A DNA stretch of 61,451 nucleotides, filler included, from Bipalium vagum (Eukaryota), in assembly GCA_037834085.1 (NCBI GenBank). It is 3 parts of 3 records of this genome, joined end to end, with 100 filler letters (N's around TTAATTAATTAA, not from the genome) between each part and the next. Parts side by side here need not be neighbours in the genome. Positions count along the whole stretch, not along the records: positions 40,484 to 61,451 come from JBBMKC010243599.1; 2 more parts are not named here. One strand, written 5' to 3'. The number at the start of each line of letters is the position of its first letter. Position 1 is the stretch's first letter. The position numbers were made by a program, and so were the translations under genes. The notes under the pieces are model-generated. The model was not told where the DNA came from. It did not search any database and worked only from the letters and a program-made list of their open reading frames with translations. Shown here one piece after another: positions 4,777 through 61,451 of this stretch.

Positions 4777-7700
4777 ATGGATAATTTGGCAAATATTTTA
4801 AGATGCACTCTAACTCCCGACCAAAACAAGGGGGCAGAAGAAATGTTGAAGGAGGTATGAATTTAACATATATTATTCGATATTGACTTTTTTAACAGAT
4901 GAAAAAAATTATTGGATTTTGTCCCAACCTATTCAATATTGCCATGGTTAACGAAATCGAAGAGGGAGTACGACAGGCAGCAGCGGTTCAATTGAAAAAT
5001 AATGTCAATGAATTTTGGCAAATTGACGATGACCCTACTCTTTTTTCCATTCACGAAGATGACAAAGCCTATATCCGAAGTCATATTCTGAATGCAATTG
5101 TCAACGTTCCAAATGTCGTTCGCGGACTCCTATTGGAAGTTTTGCATGTGATAATAAGAAACGACTTTCCCGGTCGCTGGGTCTCTCTGCCGAACGAAAT
5201 AATGAACTTCCTCGTGTGTGATAATCACATTTACTGGCTTAACGGATACCTGTGCCTGCTGAAGTTGATAAAATGTTACGAGTTCAAAAAGAACAGCCAA
5301 CGATCGGTGCTCAACCAGAATATGTCAGCATTTTTAGAAATTATGAAGAAGCACATGGAATTCCTATTCAACGACCAATCAGAAGTCAGCGTCACGATCC
5401 AGAAACATATTCTGAAGATTTACTACACCTACACACATCTGCACCTGTGCCTTGAGGTAGTCACCAAAGAAGTGTTCACATTTTGGTTGGACATTCTGTG
5501 TGCTGTTAGCACAAGACTCGTTCCCGAAGAGATTAACAGCGTTGAACCAGAGGACCGACCGGATCTGATGTGGTGGAAATGCAAGAAATGGTCATTGCAC
5601 ATTCTCTCGCGGTTCACGGACCGATACTCGAACCCGTCGTCGGTGATCAAGATGTACAAAGATTTCAGCAATTGGTTCTCCAGTGCGTTTACGGAAAAGA
5701 TCATCCAGACGCTCTTCACAATTTGCGAGCAATATAGTCGCGGGACATACATCGTCCCACGTATGCTGACGTTCGTCATAACAAGCTTCGAGTATCTAAT
5801 CAAGTGCAGCCATTCGTGGAAGTATCTCAAGCCGCATTTGATGACGCTTGTCAAGGAAGTACTATTTAAAATGCTGTCACACACAGCCGAGGACGAGGAA
5901 CTGTGGCAAGAAGACCCAGTGGAGTATTGTCGCGTATTCTTCGATATCCTGTCCGACCCGACTCCGGCATATTCGGCGGGAAATTTGTTAAACGAGGTTT
6001 GCCTGAAGCGCAAAGGCACATTGGAGGTTGTCATGACATTTATAACGGAAGTCCTTAACAGCTCAGAGACAAGTGCAATTCACAAGGATGCCGCGTTCCA
6101 CGTTATCGGTGAAGTTTCATCTGTGCTTCTGAAACGGAAAAACTTCTCTTGCCAAATGGAGAATTTCATCATCAACTTTGTCATTCCCGTGTTTCAGGCC
6201 CCCGAAGGGTTTCGGCGTGCACGCGCATGCTGGTTGGTTGGTCAGCTGGCTGCCGCTGAGTTTCAGAATAAAAATGTGCTGACGTCTCTCATTCAACAAA
6301 CTATAAATTCGATTGCAAACGATCCAGACTTGCCAGTTAAGATTATGGCAAGTATCGCCCTGTCGGAGCTGCTTGTTCAGCAGGCCGATGATGTCAAAGA
6401 TGCTGTCGGTGCCCATCTTCACCCACTGGTTCTCCAAATCCTAACTCTTCTCCGTGAGACCCAAGTTGACGAGCTAAACGACGTTTTGCAAAGCGTCATC
6501 CAGATTTTTATTGCAGAAATCGTTCCGATCGCCTTGGATACTACGACGCACTTGCGTGATACAATCCAGCCAATGCTGGCCGAAGAAATCGATGACAACA
6601 AGCAGTTAATAATAATGGGAATTCTGAGCACGGTCGAAATATTAGCTAAGGCTATGGAGGAACAGCCGACCGTTATCGTGCACCTGGAACCGGTTATCGT
6701 GTCGATAATCGAATCGATTTTCAGTAAGAAGGCGTACGACTTTTATGAGGAGGCCTATAACTTGGCGAGCAGTTTGATAAACGCAAAGATCTCGCCCACC
6801 ATGTGGCAGGTATTAGTTTTCTTGAAAACCGTTGTTGAGAACGATTGTGACGAAATAAGTGAAATGATGCCGTTACTATCCAAATACGTTACCGTTGACA
6901 AGCCGTCATTGGTAATGGATCCCATCAGAATACAGACTGTCTTTGAAATATGCTCGCTCGTTCTGAACAGCTCAGATATAAACGAAACTTTCGAACCGTA
7001 TGGTGCCAAATTACTAGAAATGATGTTGATTGATTATCGTGGACAGATAGATGAATATGTTCCGAGATTTATTGAGTTAGTCTTGACTAGACTGACACGC
7101 AAAGCTGAGCAGAGTGAGCTGCGAACCATGTGCATCCAGGTGATCATTGCAGCTTTGTATTATAACCAATCGCTGACGTTGAACATGTTGACCAATCACA
7201 ATTGGCCAGGAACATCGAGTTTAATTTTCGATGAATTTGTGTCTCGTCTGTATAATGATATGGATTGCTTTTTGGGTATTCATGATCGAAAATTGTATAT
7301 TATTGGTTTGAGCATGTTGTTGTCGTTGCCAAAACAACAGAGACCGGGCTCCTTGGAGCAATTGGGTGGCAAGATTATGCCTCCGTTGATCAAATTTATG
7401 GACACACTGAAGAACACTTATATCAACAACAAAGACGATGATGACGATGATGATGAGGACGACGAAGAAGAAGAGGGTGACGAAAAAGCTCTGGATACTG
7501 ACGAAAACGAAGAGGACGACGAAACAGTTCAGTACATGGAGATGTTAAATGACAGTGACAACGGTATTTTATCCGGTGACGACGTAGATGAGGACAACAG
7601 CGATGATGACTTGCCGGAATACACGACGGAGCTGGAAGAGTTCGAGACCGAATTGGATAAAAAAGAGCTTGAAATGTCGGAATTCATTCACTTTTACAAT

Positions 7701-7868
7701 GTCATTTCCCAACTAAACAACAGCGATCCAGAGTGGTATTGTTTATTGACATCGTCGATGACTGATGAGCATAGGAACACGCTGAAAAACATTATGGACA
7801 CGGTCAATAAGATTATCAAAGAGAACGAATCTAAGAAAGAGTCAGGTTCTGTTGCCGTTCAGCAATGA
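4777..7868 (+). CDS. IPO7: Importin-7 (IPO7/8 family karyopherin-beta); exons 4777-4854 and 4899-7868, ~1015 aa
   Basis: Exon 1 MDNLANILRCTLTPDQNKGAEEMLKE is followed by a 44-nt GT..AG phase-0 intron. IBN_N motif VRQAAAVQLKN, IIRNDFPGRW, WWKCKKWSLHIL.RF..RY, DEELWQEDPVEY, RARACW, DCFLGIHDRKL and a long acidic loop near the C-terminus. Confidence 0.95.
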
Positions 7869-10269
7869 TAACGTTGTGGGTTTCGGGGTCGACGAGTCGA
7901 TAAAAATCTTATTAAAATAAAAAATTACTTAGCTTTTGCTGTAAAAAAATGTTTTTTTATTTTTTTAAAAGAGAATTTTTTTAAGAAAAACAGTTTTAAG
8001 AGATGTCGACAAGCTCTTTATAGGAGAAAAGTAGTGACGTCTAGTAGCTGGACAAAACTTTGTTTTTGTTATGAATAGTAATCAACGTTAAAATCATATT
8101 GTTCTCAATTGATTTCTGTATACTTATTTATGTGTTCACCAACTAAAAAATAATGTGGTTTTTTTTTCAATTTTTATGTTTTATATAATGATAATAGTTT
8201 AAATATTAAAAATAAAGATTATTTCCGCTATTTACGACTAAAAACTGAATTTTTAAAATATTTTTCAATAGTCTGATTTTTGAAAAAACCGAAATAAATT
8301 GAGGGAGTAATGGTCAACGTGTTCTCTAACACGTAACAGTTCGTTAAGATTGGCAACTGTTTGTATTTGATCTAATCAAGTGACTTTATCGATTGCATCA
8401 GGTTGGTGCATACATCTTGACTATTAATGTAAATACAATGGATATTGTAATCAATTTTACGTGATGATTTAAAATGGAAATTGTGAAACTGTTTTAAATG
8501 TTACGCAAATTGATTTTGAAACTAAAATTGATATTTGGAAATAGTTAAACAAAATGTTTTAATTTTCATATTTATTTAGCTGACATATTTGATTGATATA
8601 GTTGTAAATGGAAATTTTTTTTAAAATCAATTTTTGAGTTGGCAGGATTTATTTAACAACAGAAAATATAATAAAAAATGTTCGCAGTTGATTGTTGAAT
8701 TGAAATTGTTATTAATTCCTTTTTACAAAATTTTCTTCAATTAATCAACTTGTCATTTATTAAATAATGTTGACTACACAATGGTTGGTTACCGTGCAGT
8801 CGTTGTTTATGAAATTTGACTGAAAACAGAAATATTCAAATATTACGTAAATTAATCGTTTTCACAATTGTTTCATTAAAATCAATTAAATATTAATTGT
8901 CATCGATATCAGATAATAATTAATCATACTTCTTATAAATACTATTCAATGTAATTATGCATAATTTCACAATGTGAGTTAGTGAAATCTAGATTTGTGT
9001 GCGTTTTTAAAATGGCACACTTCTATTTCAAATGGTGCACTTTAATTTTTTAAAAAATCAAAGTACTGGGTTATATTCTGACTGATGACCATTGTAAAAT
9101 ATCTTCATGAAATTTTAAAGTTGAAGAAAAAAGTAATATTGGTTAAAAATTTGAAATTTATTTGGGTAATTTAATCGCGAGTTTTACGTTTTTTCAATAA
9201 TAAAAGTAATATTTTTTACAAATTATTAATTATTAATAATACTTTAAAATATTTTAAATTTAAAGTCTTCTACTTTTCTAATAAATTTTTGAAAATTTTT
9301 ATTTTTTAATTTAAAAAGTTGAAGTTTAAGATTTTTGTAATTTTTAAAATATGAAATCTTGTATAAAATTTAATAAAATAAAAATTAATGAAATTATTTA
9401 GCAAATTAAAATTGATAAATATCTGTATTAATTAACAATCAGTATTTAGTCAGTTAAAATAAAAGTTCATTGAAAATTCGGTAACAACTTCTCATGCCTG
9501 TTCGTGTTCTAGATTTTGAAACTCAATATTATCATCTTGAAGATTTAAGATTTGAAAAAGTTGAAAACGAATAGGTATATTTGTGAGAGTGCCGGTCGTT
9601 ATAAATGAATTATAAGACTTTAGGCTTCTCAAAGTTAAATGATTGATCACACATTTTATAATGGATTTTTAAATAATACATAATAAATAATTAAAGGAAA
9701 ATGAGTACCTTTTAATTCATTTACTTACTGTATCTAAAATTATTGCTTTTTTGTTCCTTATTAATAAAGAGAAGACTCAAATATTAAATCTCATTTCCAT
9801 TCATAAACATAAAATAAAGACAAGACAAATAAACTAATATTAAAAAATTAAAAAGTGTCCATATTTCATCAAAAATTGTATTTTTCGACAAATTTTATTT
9901 CAGTTCTGTTTTCTGATAATTCTAAAGATAAACTTAGAAAAAAATATTTTGACTATTTATTATACATATTTAATTAATAAACTTACATATAATCAATAGT
10001 GGTTTTAACAATAAAGATTATATGTACTATAGAATTGTTGTTATTATCCTCTATTAAAATATGTAACTTTATCTGAAACTTCTGAAACTTCTCATTTGGT
10101 TAATATCGTGTTTTTTTGATTCAAAGTAATACAAAAATCTATCCTTTGTTGAATCAAATATATCACTCAAATATCAATCGAATCAATAAAATTTTGAAAC
10201 TTTATTCAAACGTTAATAAGATAAAATAAAAATAAAATGTCAGTTACATAAATATCAATTAAATTAAAG

Positions 10270-10550
10270 TTAAAGTCAAGAATAAAAGAACACAATCACC
10301 ATGATCGACAATATATCCCCGGGTTGTCCTCTTGACCCTGTTCGATCACATAATGATTCCAAAACTCGATGGGTCCCATTGTAAAATCCTACTGCAAATT
10401 GGCCATAATAATAACAATGATTACAAAAAAATATTTCCTTGGATTGTCGATAAAAGATTAATCTTCATTCTCACGAAAATTTCTTCGCATAATATTCTTT
10501 CGGATAATAATTTTCTTCTTATTAATCAACTTGATCCACATCAAAAACCC
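10270..10550 (-). repeat. Hairpin/TATA dispersed repeat, copy B, 3' part
   Basis: Reverse complement (aggattttacaatgggacccatcgagttttggaatca..aggacaacccggggatatattgtcgatcatggtga) aligns by eye to 61204-61300 (aggatttaccaagggtacccatcgtatttgggaatca..aggacaacccggggaccccttgtcgctcctggtga). Confidence 0.85.
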
Positions 10551-11613
10551 ACTTTTCAGTTTATTTAATTGTTTTTTTCATAATACGTTATTTTTCAATA
10601 AATCTAACCATATGGAAAATTCAAGAACTAACAGAAATAATTTCACACCAAATGCAAGTTGGAAATTTGTAATAAAAAAACACGAGCTAGACAACTCGAT
10701 TGTTCAAATTTTTAACGATCTGCGAGTAATTACAGCACGACTCAATCAATAATCTGGTAATTCAGAAAAAACGGAATATTCTTTAGCGAGAAAAAAATGT
10801 GGAAGAAAAGGTGAGATAACTGAAGAAATCAAAGATTTTATTAAAACAAAAATTGATCAAGATTGTTCCATCACACTTGGAAAAATCAAACCAATCCGAT
10901 GAAACTCTATTATTAGGATTGAAGCTCGATTTAACAATGAAAAATACCTTTAAAAATAGATATTAACCGGTTGACATTTCTTGATCAGTTTGGTATGAAT
11001 TGTTCGATGCGAAAATGATACAGTCGCTGTGTTATTGGTGAAATATCAAAAAACAGGTAACCTTAGTAAGAAGCCGAAAAGTTTCTGTTTGCGCTGCGTG
11101 TGAAAATGACAAATTGCTATTTTTTGAAATAAAAAAAAATGGTTATAATGGTAAAAGTTTTGAAAGTTATTTAGGAAATCTCTTGAAAACATTGAATTCT
11201 TAAAATATAACCAACCAGATATTTATTTTTGATAGCGTTAGTTTTCACAAAATGGCACAAATAAGAGAATTAGCAACGAGAAACAATCACGATTTAATAT
11301 TTTGTCACCGTATTCTCTCTAATTAAGTCTGATTGAGAAGGATGGAAAGAACATACAAGTGGCAGCAAATGCCATACCAATGAGCAGCTGCTGAGAACAA
11401 TTCAAAGTTTATAGGAGTAAATCAGATCTGAACACTGTCAAAATTATTTTTGCCATATGCATACATTTTTAATAAAAGCTGTTGGGTGTGAAAATTTTTG
11501 AATAAAAAGAAATTTTGGAGATATTGAACCTTTTTTATTTTTATATAAAATAAAATGCTTTTGCAAAAATAATTAAATATTTTTTAAAAATCAATTAAGT
11601 ATTTTGAAAAAGT
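10551..11613 (+). mobile_element. Degenerate IS630/Tc1-like transposon (DDE_3) with TIRs
   Basis: Broken ORF from 10612: KKCGRKGEITEEIKDFIKTKIDQDCSITL, RSRKVSVCAA, YNGKSFESYL, IFIFDSVSFHK, PYS..LSLIE. TIR acttttcagtttatttaattgtttttt (10551-10577) matches the reverse complement of 11586-11613. Confidence 0.8.
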
Positions 11614-11619
11614 TAATTA

Positions 11620-11800
11620 TCTATTTTGAAAACCCTATAATCCTTTCTGGGCAAATTTCTGATTGAAATCTTCGCCATATATAGTCGTAGAGATTTCTCT
11701 ACGACAACCAATATATAGGTTTGGAAATCTAATTCCTCTAATAGACCATTAATTAGAAAATATTTTTTAATGTTTACAACGAGGATTAGGAAGAAGTTCA
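11620..11800 (-). repeat. Hairpin/TATA dispersed repeat, copy B, 5' part
   Basis: Palindrome gtcgtagaga-tt-tctctacgac at 11684-11705. Reverse complement aatctctacgactatata..cagaaatttgccca matches 61005-61052, and aatggtctattagaggaattag matches aatgggctattgatggaaatag (60948-60969). Confidence 0.8.
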
Positions 11801-41421: not shown

Positions 41422-43156
41422 TTACCCAGGAGAAGTAGAAGCCAAGTTAGAAACCGTCTTGAAATCATTGGGAACTTCTGTCATTTGTACAGTATGCCTT
41501 CTAACATTTAATTGTAATGATAAATTCTGTTCAATAAACGATGTCTGTTCCTGATTAAGTAGATACTCTTCATCGGCTTGAAGTACCCAATTATAAAGTT
41601 TGGCCATTATTGTAACATCGGAATTTAAATAAAATTTATTTTTTAAATATGACAAACTATCTCGCCGGCACGTATAAACTGGTTTTGTGTTGGGATCTCT
41701 ATTGATATTCAACTTTTCCGAATCTTCCGTTGGTTGTTGCTGTGAGATCGTCATATCAGATATATTGGCACTGGTTTGAAGATCAGAAGGTTGGTTATTA
41801 CTATTTATGAAGGTTGCGTGGGCTGCTTCAAGATAGACAGCGAGAATGGAATTGCTATAAAATCGATATACCTTGTCCTTTAATAAATGATATGCGGCGT
41901 AATTTCGATCGAATAATCGATTAATAACGGAATTTCGCACTTCGTCTTCATCAAAACCGTTCATTTGCAAGGCTAGCTGAATGGCGTAGTCCAATTTAAT
42001 TTTACTGGAATGGTACATTTGCTCTCTGATTATATCTGAATGCTCAGGATGCTGTCTGTGAAATATTTCTTCAAATTTATTTTCAATCGCCTTTTTATTA
42101 TACATTTCCATGAGAGCTCGATACTTATCAACATTATTCGAGGACTGCATCCAAGGTGTAGAAATAATCTGCTCAATTCTAAATCGCTTAGTCGGATCAA
42201 CCTGTAACATACCTCGCACTAGATATTCACATGATGTGGACAGATAAAATGGAAATCGAACCAGTCCTCTCAAAACCTGATTTCTTATATCACCTAAACT
42301 TTCACCGGGAAATGGAAATGATCCGCAAACCATTATATACAGTACAACTCCCAAACTCCAGACATCTGCTAAAGATCCATCGTATAATTCTCCCTTGAAA
42401 ACCTCTGGAGCGGCATATTGTGGACTTCCGCAATGGGTGGACAACAATTTATTTAATTCAAAAAAGTTGCAAAACCCAAAATCGGCAACTTTTATTTGAT
42501 AGTTAGAATTCAATAAGAGATTCTCCGCTTTTAAGTCTCGGTGAACTACGCTGGACTTATGACAATAATTAATAGCACAGACAATCTGCCAGAAAAGTTC
42601 TCTAGCGTCTTTTTCCGTGAACGCATGGGCCTGGCTAATATGGTCGAACACTTCTCCTTTCTCTGCGTATTCCATTACCATAAAGATCTTCGAGTCCGTT
42701 TCCAAAATTTGATACAATTTTACAATATGCGGATGATCCAGTCGTTTCATTGCCTCAATTTCACGAGTTACTTTTTCTAAATTGTTCATACCCAACAGGG
42801 ACTTATTCATTATTTTTATTGCACTTTTTGTCTTAATAATACTATGAGTAGCCAGTTTTACAACAGCGAAATTCCCTTTGCCTATGGTACGGTCCAAAAG
42901 ATATTCGGAGATTCGAGTTATTCTCATTTTCTGCTTGTTGCATTCCGACTGAGTTCCAATATTGGGATTAATGGTTGAAGATAATGAAGCTTGTTGATCA
43001 TACATTGGCATCTTTCTGAAATTGATATTCTTGGAAATAGTTTTTTCCTGAATATTGCTCAAGCGTGGACTTATAAATCGATAATTTCCGTGAAGGCTGT
43101 CTGTAATAGTTTAAATATAAAGTAAGAAATATATTTTTACTATTTGACACAATCAT
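41422..43156 (-). CDS. SIK2: Salt-inducible kinase (SIK1/2-like, AMPK-related Ser/Thr kinase); exons 43141-43156 and ~41426-43100, possibly 3'-incomplete
   Basis: GKGNFAVVKLA, AIK, HPHIVKLYQ, HRDLKAENLLL, DFG, T-loop LSTHCGSPQYAAPE, UBA-like MNGFDEDEV..YAAYHLL, PKA-type sites RRDS and RRHT. A 40-nt intron (43101-43140) gives ATG at 43156. The final TAA sits inside a gtaaat donor-like site. Confidence 0.9.
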
Positions 43157-48228: not shown

Positions 48229-49269
48229 TCTTTAAAATTTTTCGAAATGCATTTTCTAATAATATCTGATAAGAAATAAGCGAAATATATTATCTATACA
48301 TAAACATAATTATTGAAAAATTTGTTTAACGGAAAGTTAATTAAATTGATATAGTTTAAGAACATGCATATTATTTCTATTTTTAATAATTTTTACTTTT
48401 TTTTAAAGTTTCTTTAAAATTATTAATTTTATAAATTTATTATTTATTCTAGTTTATTTGACATTTAAAATTATTTGAATTACTTTTAATCAACAATTTC
48501 TGAAAATCTCGTATATAATTTAATTAAAATAACCTTACACTTAATTTATTTTTTGGAAAGTTGTAATATCAAAAAATGAGAGAATTTATAAGAGCAAATT
48601 TACTTAGAAAACGAGTAAAAGTATATTTCGATAGATTTTTTGATTTTTTTAATTAACAAATGAGTTTTTTAAATTCAACTTTGTAATTTTATTATAAATT
48701 ATAAAAAATTAAATTATTATTAAACAAATTAAAATTGTATTATAAATTCTATATAAATAATACCAATCCGAAATTCAATTTATGACAGTCCCAAGTTTCT
48801 TAATAAAGAATTATTCCGTGCAATTCAAAATGTATTTTGTCATATAACCTGCCAGGAACGTAAAAAATTAGAGTCTTCATACACGTCAATTCGATTCAGA
48901 CTATTTTAAGTACTGAAATTTTAAAATTTTCGTTTGTAAAAATTTAAGTGTATCTAAAATTATATAGATTTTCGTTTTTTAATATTTATGAAAATAGCTT
49001 CATTTGTGACACTGTAATAATAAACACTTTTTAACTATTATTATTTGTGATCCTTTTTTTAAACTTGTGTTGGGTTTACCCAAAACACCCACCAGTCCCA
49101 GGTGAAAATTGTGATATTGTGCACAAAATGATAAGACTAATAATAATAATAATTTTGAATTTGTGCATAAAATAACAATAAATAACAATAATAATAATAA
49201 TAATCAATATAAAAATATTAAGAATAATAATTAAAAATTAAGTTAATTAAAAAGGAAAAAGGCAATAAT

Positions 49270-49450
49270 TTTTTAGGGATCTAATCTTGACAATGACGAA
49301 TCTAAATTGTCAAGATTAGATCAGGGTCCACAAGGAGGGACCGATTTAAAATCAATGATCCTAAAAGGGAATTGACATTTCCCATTAATAAAACTGGTCT
49401 ACGACTAATTAGTCGTGGACCAGAATAATATATAAGAAGAAGGATTTCTC
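49270..49450 (+). repeat. Hairpin/TATA repeat, copy C (more diverged)
   Basis: Perfect 17-bp inverted repeat 49278-49294/49306-49322, small stems ggtcc/ggacc and gggaa/ttccc, 30-bp near-palindrome 49394-49423 containing tctacgacta, then tatataagaagaagg. Confidence 0.6.
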
Positions 49451-49872
49451 CATATATTCGCCTACAATCACAAGATTAACAACAACAACATGCTTTGTTA
49501 AGTTACCCAATTCCAATTTCAATATTTTTAAACCAAATCTTTGGTACCAATTTTTAAGAACTTAACAATAATAATAATAATTAGTAACACGTATGTATGA
49601 TGAAAACCTAATATTAATTAATCTACTTGAAAATTGTGAGATAGTACAGGGCTTCTAAAATTATGTCGCTAAGTATATTTAATTCTTTTATTAAAATGTT
49701 ACAGGGTCTTACTCTGCAATTATAAAAAATTGCCGTTTGTGACTTCAAGATATCGGGATGATAGTTCATAAAGCTTGAAAATCGATTCAAGAAAGTAATC
49801 GAATAAAACAAAAAGAAACTATTGAGACAAAGGGGAAAAGAGATTTTATTGGCAAAAGTAAGATCGACCAGA

Positions 49873-59593: not shown

Positions 59594-60340
59594 TTGGGTT
59601 GTTTAATAAGTCAGTGCGTTATTTTCAGTATTTTTAATAGTTTTAGCCTTTCAATATGTCAATATATATCATTATACATCATAATTTACAATTGATTGTT
59701 TATTTAAATTAAAAAAAGTAAGTACAATTTGATCCTCATTTTTAAAACTGTTTGTGTTTTTATAGTGTTTCAAAAAATGGAGAACTTTGACGAGCAAGTG
59801 TGGAATATTTTTTTTTCTTTTACTTCAAAAAAGTAAAATAAAAACCACTGAGACCAGAAAAAAATTAGTGAAAATTTATGGAGAAGATATGATTAAAGAA
59901 AAACATTGCCAGAAATGGTTTTCCCGTTGTTGTAATGGGATTTTTTCCTTCAAGGATGCTCTTCGGCCTGGGAAACCTGTTACGATTGTCATCGACAGAA
60001 TTACAACTTTTGTGAAAGTAAATAGACATTCAACGCTCAGAGAAATTGTGAGTGCTTAAAATTTGTCAGTAGAAAGCGATCATTGTCACTAAAAGTCCGC
60101 AGGGTTCATAAAAACTTGAATGTCTGGTCTCGCACGAATTGAAAGAAATTTACAAAGTCAATCAAATTGAAACTTGCGATCAACTTATGAAACAAAAAGA
60201 AGGCGATCCCTTTTTAAGGCAAACGAAAACGGGCGATGAAAATTGGATCGTCTACAATAATGTCAACAGAAAAAGAAGTTAGTATAAAAAAGATGAAGCA
60301 CAGGAGAGGCAAGCAGAAACAAATATTCAAATCCAAAATT
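59594..60340 (+). mobile_element. mariner 5' half (TIR plus N-terminal transposase)
   Basis: TA|ttgggttgtttaataagtc TIR. IYGEDMIKEKHCQKWFSR..DALRPGKP, SHEL (cf. WVPHEL), TGDENWIVYNNVNRKRS. Confidence 0.85.
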
Positions 60341-60848: not shown

Positions 60849-60871
60849 TAACGCATTGAATTGAAAGATAA

Positions 60872-61360
60872 TGATGAATGAGCTCCGTCGTGGAGCAATT
60901 AATTTCTTTATCTAACTTTGTCTCGGGGTAGAGACAAGGTTAGAAATAATGGGCTATTGATGGAAATAGCCGTCTCGAAGCGTAGGGATTGGTGATCGTA
61001 GCCCAATCTCTACGACTATATAAAGAGAAAGGTATTCCCAGAAATTTACCCAAAACGAATTTCAGATGATATACAGACAATTTCAGAAGGATACACTGAA
61101 TATTTCAGAAAGACGATTTATACGATTTTATGCAATTTTCCAGAGGACCCGAGGACAATTCAAGGATTCCCATATTCATTTGTTTGTGGATATGCTATAA
61201 CAAGAGGATTTACCAAGGGTACCCATCGTATTTGGGAATCACTAGATGACCTGCAAAGGACCTAAAGGACAACCCGGGGACCCCTTGTCGCTCCTGGTGA
61301 GATCATTTATTTTGTTAACTTTCGAACTCTTTCTCTTTGTGATTATTCTTCTCGACCTTT
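60872..61360 (+). repeat. Hairpin/TATA dispersed repeat, copy A (most complete)
   Basis: Four inverted repeats (60882-60896, 60911-60944, 60952-60971, 60981-61014), TATATAAA at 61017-61024, three tttcaga-containing ~21-nt repeats, and a 3' block homologous to 10270-10400. Confidence 0.8.
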
Positions 61361-61381
61361 TCTTTATAACTATTTAATTAA

Positions 61382-61382
<1 letters not shown>

Positions 61383-61451
<69 letters not shown>
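61383..61451. repeat. (TAT)n microsatellite
   Basis: Direct reading. Confidence 0.95.

Follow-up and report, generated by a model that had tools for sequence, protein, structure and literature searches.

A ladder of hairpins before the TATA box of a broken Ty3/gypsy LTR in Bipalium vagum, a probable cluster of palindromic promoter motifs

The DNA of Bipalium vagum analysed here (hereafter, the window; 61,451 nt) is a pack of three stretches, and a ladder of hairpins running up to a TATA box lies at the end of the third. We find that this ladder is almost certainly part of a broken LTR from a high-copy, env-carrying Ty3/gypsy retrotransposon. More cautiously, we consider it probable that, within this truncated gypsy LTR, the ladder represents a cluster of palindromic DNA motifs in the U3 promoter region. 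An earlier note had proposed several identities for the element, one being an unusual LTR/U3, and this option is borne out by the TG..CA ends, 4-bp target duplications, primer site and adjoining gag-env-pol of the family. The flanking coding region that it suggested looking for is also present, as gag-env-pol beside LTR copies. The features of the window copy are as follows.

60850..61451, + strand: LTR fragment of family A, comprising part of U3, the TATA box and a putative R region (genome matches and alignment of copies)
60882..60896, + strand: stem H1, 5 bp (fold and sequence)
60911..60944, + strand: stem H2, 14 bp with one T.G, the sole stem with subfamily-level compensatory changes (about 3 pairs)
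60952..60971, + strand: stem H3, 7 bp, with arms conserved in sequence and a variable loop
60965..61036, + strand: 12-bp inverted repeat (arms 60965-60976 and 61025-61036), decayed in the window copy
60981..61015, + strand: stem H4, 12 bp with one G.T, carrying an inverted ATTGG/CCAAT (alignments of copies)
61017-61024, + strand: TATA box TATATAAA
61017..61051, + strand: TATA box with conserved downstream block, a putative core promoter with comparable spacing in families A, B and C
61267-61302, + strand: GC block
61294..61302, + strand: candidate 5' splice donor CTG/GTGAGA in the putative R region, from resemblance to the consensus
61384..61449, + strand: expanded (TAT)n microsatellite inside the LTR, where the contig breaks

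The four stems noticed earlier are all in place before the TATA box, in 156 nt that fold with a z of about -6, and the GC-rich block and (TAT)n tract were both located (61267-61302 and 61384-61449). The element is, by contrast, not a unit of about 490 nt with a (TAT)n body, as full LTR copies measure 0.9-1.1 kb (TGTTGGG...AACA) and the tract, short in other family copies, is an internal microsatellite. Similarity of the window copy to the family begins only at about 60850, so its 5' part (the initial 250-300 nt of the LTR) is absent, and at the 3' side the contig ends within the expanded microsatellite. Both LTR termini are thus lost, and a solo LTR and a 5' LTR are indistinguishable for this copy. 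The H4 loop motif (60996-61001) can pair alternatively with the same right arm, while H4 and the TATA box lie between the arms of the 12-bp inverted repeat, which, if paired, is mutually exclusive with H3. The donor-like GT at 61294-61302 is retained in most of 30 copies. Elsewhere in the window we observe a decayed mariner transposase upstream of the LTR fragment (59766-60330, + strand; Mos1 HTH match, E 6.7e-9), an importin-7-like ORF of 990 codons without introns (4896-7865, + strand) and, judged by eye, a kinase-like stretch of 562 codons (41425-43110, - strand).

A search of the same genome with the element returned at least 48 matches (best 40 of 3,122 candidates scored), from which 30 loci were taken. 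The copies share a 5' TGTTGGG, AAT tracts, the ladder, the TATA box, an internal AATAAA about 150-190 nt upstream of the LTR 3' end and a 3' ...GTAACA, and their core has a mean pairwise identity of 78%. Family copies therefore carry the TG...CA ends, with a short inverted repeat (TGTT..AACA), that are typical of LTRs along with other general LTR motifs (PMC3601003). An exact target duplication of 4 bp flanks 19 of the 26 copies with both ends (family A 7/9, C 6/8, D2 6/9), compared with 18/650 among mismatched end pairs, and duplications of 5 or 6 bp are found in none. One copy without the duplication is a 5' LTR followed by the primer site. Junctions of 5' and 3' LTRs are seen on many separate contigs; in this fragmented assembly no whole element with both LTRs was seen on a single contig, and all element copies examined are broken. 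For example, L263 retains a short 5' LTR end, the primer site, gag, an accessory ORF and a damaged 3' LTR. L262 (G000:C20332) probably holds a nested insertion, with a family A LTR located about 1 kb beyond the point where a family C 3' LTR starts. Repbase/Dfam may already contain the family or its Schmidtea relatives.

The internal region was reached through a gag fragment beside one primer-bearing LTR, which gave 151 matches among 1,368 candidates, with 20 longer stretches fetched. The order gag, linker, env, PR, RT, RH is found in L086, L089, L098 and L099, with IN also present in L086, L089 and L099; gag is preceded by LTR sequence in L049, L085, L089, L096, L097, L101 and L266. In L089 and L097, a single contig carries part of a family A LTR followed by gag and env, and in L098 env, PR and the start of RT share one frame, with stops. 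Pfam matches include zf-CCHC (8e-12), the viral fusion glycoprotein PF24664 (2e-63, in 5 fragments from L092, L097, L098 and L099), RVP (3e-8), RVT_1 (2e-18) and RT_RNaseH (6e-39), while 7 of 19 fragments have no Pfam family. The PR-RT-RH-IN order of L086, L089 and L099 and the RH, whose closest relative among solved structures is that of Ty3, are those of Ty3/gypsy elements, the integrase matches scoring under Pfam's cut-off. The position of a gB-type env between gag and pol is that of GAG-ENV-POL errantiviruses. One outside protein (P0001) also joins PF24664 to a protease; a homologue search with env gave 2 matches among proteins of near length and none among longer ones.

Gag to IN spans about 6-8 kb depending on locus (L086, L089, L098, L099), lengths that are lower bounds because some copies carry deletions. 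Between gag and env, a helical domain (L097:1824-2300, - strand) gives a weak Bcl-2-like signal (Atlas 0.76, Bcl-2 on 12% of members). Its model has a low pLDDT (50.6), and of the 50 rows listed by a structure comparison with that model, 7 are Bcl-2-type chains (Z 5.2-6.2, rmsd 5-6); no sequence match to such a domain was found. Between IN and the accessory ORF, 1-2 further ORF stretches with hydrophobic segments are visible (L086:1370-2907, - strand; L101, L264), and these match no Pfam family except for a weak IN C-terminal match.

A tRNA-Trp primer site lies 2 nt past the LTR end, and 6 of the 18 LTR ends with a following TGG share the downstream sequence. The site is complementary to the 3' end of tRNA-Trp, with 1 mismatch to a host tRNA-Trp(CCA) gene predicted by ARAGORN, and is matched fully by two tRNA-Trp-like fragments (L052, L053 and L054 compared); some copies have a 2-nt insertion within it. 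It has 162 exact matches in the genome, spread over several LTR families (30 fetched), compared with 0 for the control. Other LTR families (L202-L231; ends CTTAACA and CCCAACA) share this site, and two of them have a distant gag (27-28% identity). A single pattern used for the family C primer site found none among the 20 matches fetched out of 22. The plus-strand junction has no plain purine run; instead, a conserved small hairpin and a short G-rich motif precede the 3' LTR. The arms of this hairpin (e.g. L262:5690-5740, L263:5410-5460, L267:2870-2920) change in step between subfamilies.

The accessory ORF lies 3' of pol (L239:754-2760, G000:C202486; also L086, L099 and L262) and is open for 668 codons in one copy. 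Its product matches the ISG20-like exonuclease 1wlj (E 9.7e-5), although the homologue search and Pfam gave no match; in the genome, it has 808 candidates, of which the best 150 were scored. A pyrimidine tract and TTCAG shortly upstream of its ATG suggest putative splice acceptors. Two loci, L263 (G000:C85059) and L265 (G000:C245996), have internal deletions that keep gag and the accessory ORF and lack env and pol, possibly representing a non-autonomous lineage. Our literature search found no report of an ISG20-like accessory ORF in flatworm gypsy-type LTR elements; Trp priming and the atypical PPT were likewise not found in print.

The two other copies seen in the window belong to a diverged subfamily (B) and a sister family (C), with the following parts.

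11625..11790, - strand: copy B, U3 and TATA part of the diverged subfamily (homology to A)
10036..10480, - strand: copy B, 3' part of the same LTR (homology to A)
49068..49480, + strand: copy C, 5' part of a sister LTR family (TGTTGGG start, its own five-stem ladder, TATA)

Copy B, correctly recognised before as a homologous minus-strand copy, is one LTR (about 11625-11790 plus 10036-10480) interrupted by about 1.1 kb of inserted sequence. By eye, the translation of this insertion (10550-11600) resembles a decayed transposase, which we take to be of the Tc1/IS630 type. Family C, for which the genome search scored the best 40 of 2,534 candidates, has its own TG..CA ends and target duplications, and belongs to the same clade as A since the same accessory ORF precedes both C-type LTRs and A-related ones (L262, L263). 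The homology claimed for the copy at 49270-49450 holds in that it is a sister LTR with patchy matches, namely the 5' end, the TATA block (25/32 nt, E 0.11) and a 67-nt 3' patch (E 2e-4). It does not extend to the stems, which give no BLAST alignment with those of A at E<=1. As such, the comparison of A with C is no proof of covariation. Nor is the pairing of different left arms with a shared CTACGAC arm confirmed: CTACGAC is the left arm in C and the right arm in A and B. In subfamily D2, H1 is swapped for a different, longer palindrome.

The folding of the ladder is strong. Over the 156 nt that end at the TATA box, z is -6.25 with DNA parameters and -6.51 with RNA parameters, and none of 200 shuffles folds as well. 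Among copies that were the best-scoring ones, so that intact stems are favoured, z over the 150 nt preceding the TATA box averages -4.3 in A (n = 12), -4.0 in D (n = 6), -5.9 in C (n = 10) and -1.9 in B (n = 10). The family F mean is -0.6 (n = 5, two without U3), with -0.9, -1.3 and -0.3 in its three U3-intact copies. The opposite strand folds just as well (-4.3 vs -4.6 in A, -4.0 vs -4.7 in D, -5.9 vs -5.2 in C), whereas the region after the TATA box (z -0.6 to +1.1) stays at background, which is -0.4 +/- 1.3 in 40 windows.

Covariation was assessed in two alignments. A1 holds 45 of 85 extracted U3 regions and excludes hairpin-pattern finds, truncated and low-scoring ones; A2 holds 51 rows, i.e. 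39 of the 85 U3 regions and 12 of 30 younger-subfamily copies, with 14 of the 51 found via a pattern that requires H4 pairing. Double-change cells are more numerous than in shuffles (55 vs 24.8 in A1, 46 vs 19.9 in A2), counts that are inflated by related copies. The number of pairs with double changes does not exceed them (12 vs 9.9 and 7 vs 5.5, reached by 124 and 131 of 500 shuffles, respectively). Compensatory changes are confined to about 3 pairs of H2, and two of these changed separately, with all four combinations present (21, 15, 2 and 2 copies). No subfamily-level double changes are seen in H3, H4 or the TATA-spanning repeat. The latter was rejected as a covarying RNA helix, its count being reached by 341 of 500 shuffles. 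One H4 pair is standard in 44/44 cells of A1 (A-U, G-U, G-C) and 49/50 of A2. G.U mismatches outnumber A.C (91 vs 40), a difference that hinges on one H4 column, never A.C in A1, and drops to 52 vs 40 without it (p 0.25). In family C, A.C occurs in 11 of the 14 copies displayed, and T.C in the last stem. A general G.U bias is not supported, and the description of the mismatches as G-T type depends on that one position. Conservation of loop and stem is 0.83 vs 0.78 in H2 and 0.88 vs 0.93 in H4; the H3 loop is less conserved than its stem, and the arms of H3 and H4 are strongly conserved (0.93-0.94). The stems are made of few motifs that recur in both orientations, whole palindromes are gained and lost between subfamilies, and mismatches persist through whole subfamilies. 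Our literature search found no report of a U3 hairpin ladder with compensatory changes in an LTR retrotransposon.

Given these patterns, we asked what the ladder may do. RNA polymerase II starts transcription about 25-30 nt after the TATA box, and the transcripts of the element would start at that distance past its own. With a start downstream of the TATA box, the ladder would be absent from the RNA 5' end and present only at the 3' end; it would then be U3 and act as double-stranded promoter DNA in the 5' LTR. The conserved cores, namely the inverted CCAAT pair, TCTC-N6-GAGA and the 12-bp repeat round the TATA box, would serve as protein-binding sites, and the symmetry of the outer stem parts may be maintained either by weak selection or by one arm being copied onto the other in reverse transcription. 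Action at the DNA level is likely, as strand-equal folding, the lack of a general G.U excess, conserved loops and the absence of subfamily-level double changes in H3, H4 and the TATA-spanning repeat all back it. Specifically, the strand symmetry, conserved loops and invariant cores probably fit putative clustered binding sites. Several observations count against such motifs: of the three H2 pairs with double changes, two arose separately, which fits structure better than a fixed binding site; one H4 pair is standard in nearly every cell; and the family C ladder is rebuilt from sequence that does not align with that of A.

The same H2 changes and the ladder of unalignable family C, along with the H4 pair restricted to A-U, G-U and G-C, would be expected if the ladder were selected as RNA structure at the genomic RNA 3' end (U3-R of the 3' LTR), acting in export, packaging or polyadenylation switching. 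H3 against the TATA-spanning helix, and outer against inner H4 pairings, could then form a switch. The donor-like site upstream of AATAAA adds to this, with a layout as in foamy viruses, where a donor upstream of AATAAA is regulated by RNA structure (PMC3694450), as does the candidate spliced accessory gene, comparable to the Cer1 accessory gene that serves export (PMC10309623). However, the folding shows no strand preference and the pairs no general G.U excess, A.C and T.C mismatches are common in family C, the TATA-spanning helix does not covary, and the ladder is poor in family F of the same clade (z -0.9, -1.3, -0.3) and in B (average -1.9); we consider this explanation rather unlikely. 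The selection on single-stranded structure proposed earlier thus gains slight support from double-change cells in excess of shuffles, and none from the pair counts, the restriction to one stem or the lack of strand preference.

Palindromes may also arise as a functionless by-product, with template switching creating inverted duplications and copying arm onto arm. The reuse of few motifs in both orientations, the gain and loss of palindromes between subfamilies and the lack of a significant ladder in family F are in line with this origin. In quasi-palindrome correction, arm-to-arm copying also produces double changes. Yet the signal is limited to the 150 nt before the TATA box, with downstream sequence at background (z -0.6 to +1.1), mismatches last uncorrected through entire subfamilies, and the H3 and H4 arms are strongly conserved (0.93-0.94); we consider a by-product unlikely. 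For an independent structured ncRNA, a MITE or a replication origin, we see next to no chance: strong folding and dispersed copies would suit them, whereas the LTR ends, the 4-bp duplications, the primer site and adjoining gag-env-pol speak against them, and the link to the internal region refutes them. Rfam, searched with 5 loci, gave 0 matches at E<=0.1, and the structured ncRNA family of the earlier note is not supported; nor are its replication origin or its Rep, Penelope or tyrosine-recombinase terminus, given the LTR ends, duplications, tRNA primer site and gag-env-pol. A cluster of palindromic promoter motifs in U3 thus stays our preferred explanation. More speculatively, and improbably in our judgement, the clade could resemble complex retroviruses, with a spliced ISG20-like nuclease gene, a non-canonical plus-strand primer and a two-state RNA switch of the 3' LTR (polyadenylation/export) rebuilt in sister families.

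Among known systems, a GAG-ENV-POL order with an HSV/gB env is described from Nematoda, Bryozoa and Platyhelminthes (PMC13524379, Chary & Hayashi, eLife). The element resembles Smed_errantivirus_1 and _2 in its Ty3/gypsy pol and in a gB-type env between gag and pol (PMC13524379). Among the rows compared from the env table of that paper, its env peptides LREF and HPFC match only those of these two, and their env rows look colinear with this env by eye. Judging by these peptides and the by-eye comparison, the element is probably a new addition to the flatworm-type GAG-ENV-POL errantiviruses, a type known from planarians. For the six Schmidtea elements, neither a primer site nor an LTR is listed in that paper, and the passages and rows on Smed_errantivirus describe neither LTR structure nor an accessory ORF (PMC13524379). 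Here, a clear tRNA-Trp site is found, and all copies examined are broken.

Burro/GYPSM1, giant gypsy elements of planarians, also have env in frame between gag and pol and CCHC knuckles (PMC6431247). Burro carries a BCL2-like domain before env, for which there is a weak lead here, but its internal region reaches up to 25 kb with an ORF1 of 4,873 aa (PMC6431247), in contrast to about 6-8 kb from gag to IN. Neither a giant polyprotein nor an internal region of >20 kb, as in Burro, was found, the 6-8 kb being lower bounds; MATH, BIR and ankyrin domains gave no match in the fragments scanned. Like the element here, the gypsy-like Juno and Vesta of bdelloids carry an additional 3' ORF (ORF3) whose product falls in the DEDD exonuclease superfamily, and ORF3s are typically expressed via spliced messages (PMC5408684). 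In Juno and Vesta, an RNase D-like DEDDy replaces env (PMC5408684), whereas here the ISG20-like match comes in addition to a gB-type env.

The nearest precedent for the ladder, by analogy and not by membership, would be the palindrome region of maize Sirevirus LTRs, a GC-rich cluster of hairpin-capable palindromes before a conserved TATA box, which differ in sequence between families and are prone to module-sized indels (PMC4728375). Sireviruses belong to the Ty1/copia elements of plants and repeat a single 17-nt palindrome (PMC4728375), in contrast to the several different stems of this animal Ty3/gypsy element. Our analysis adds Trp priming, an odd plus-strand junction, a palindromic U3 and an accessory nuclease-like ORF to the recently described env-carrying invertebrate retroelements. 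If the ladder did act as an RNA switch, an endogenous retrovirus of invertebrates would have a control element resembling that of foamy viruses. The element further suggests that promoter regions rich in palindromes evolved not only in plant Sireviruses but also in gypsy elements of animals.
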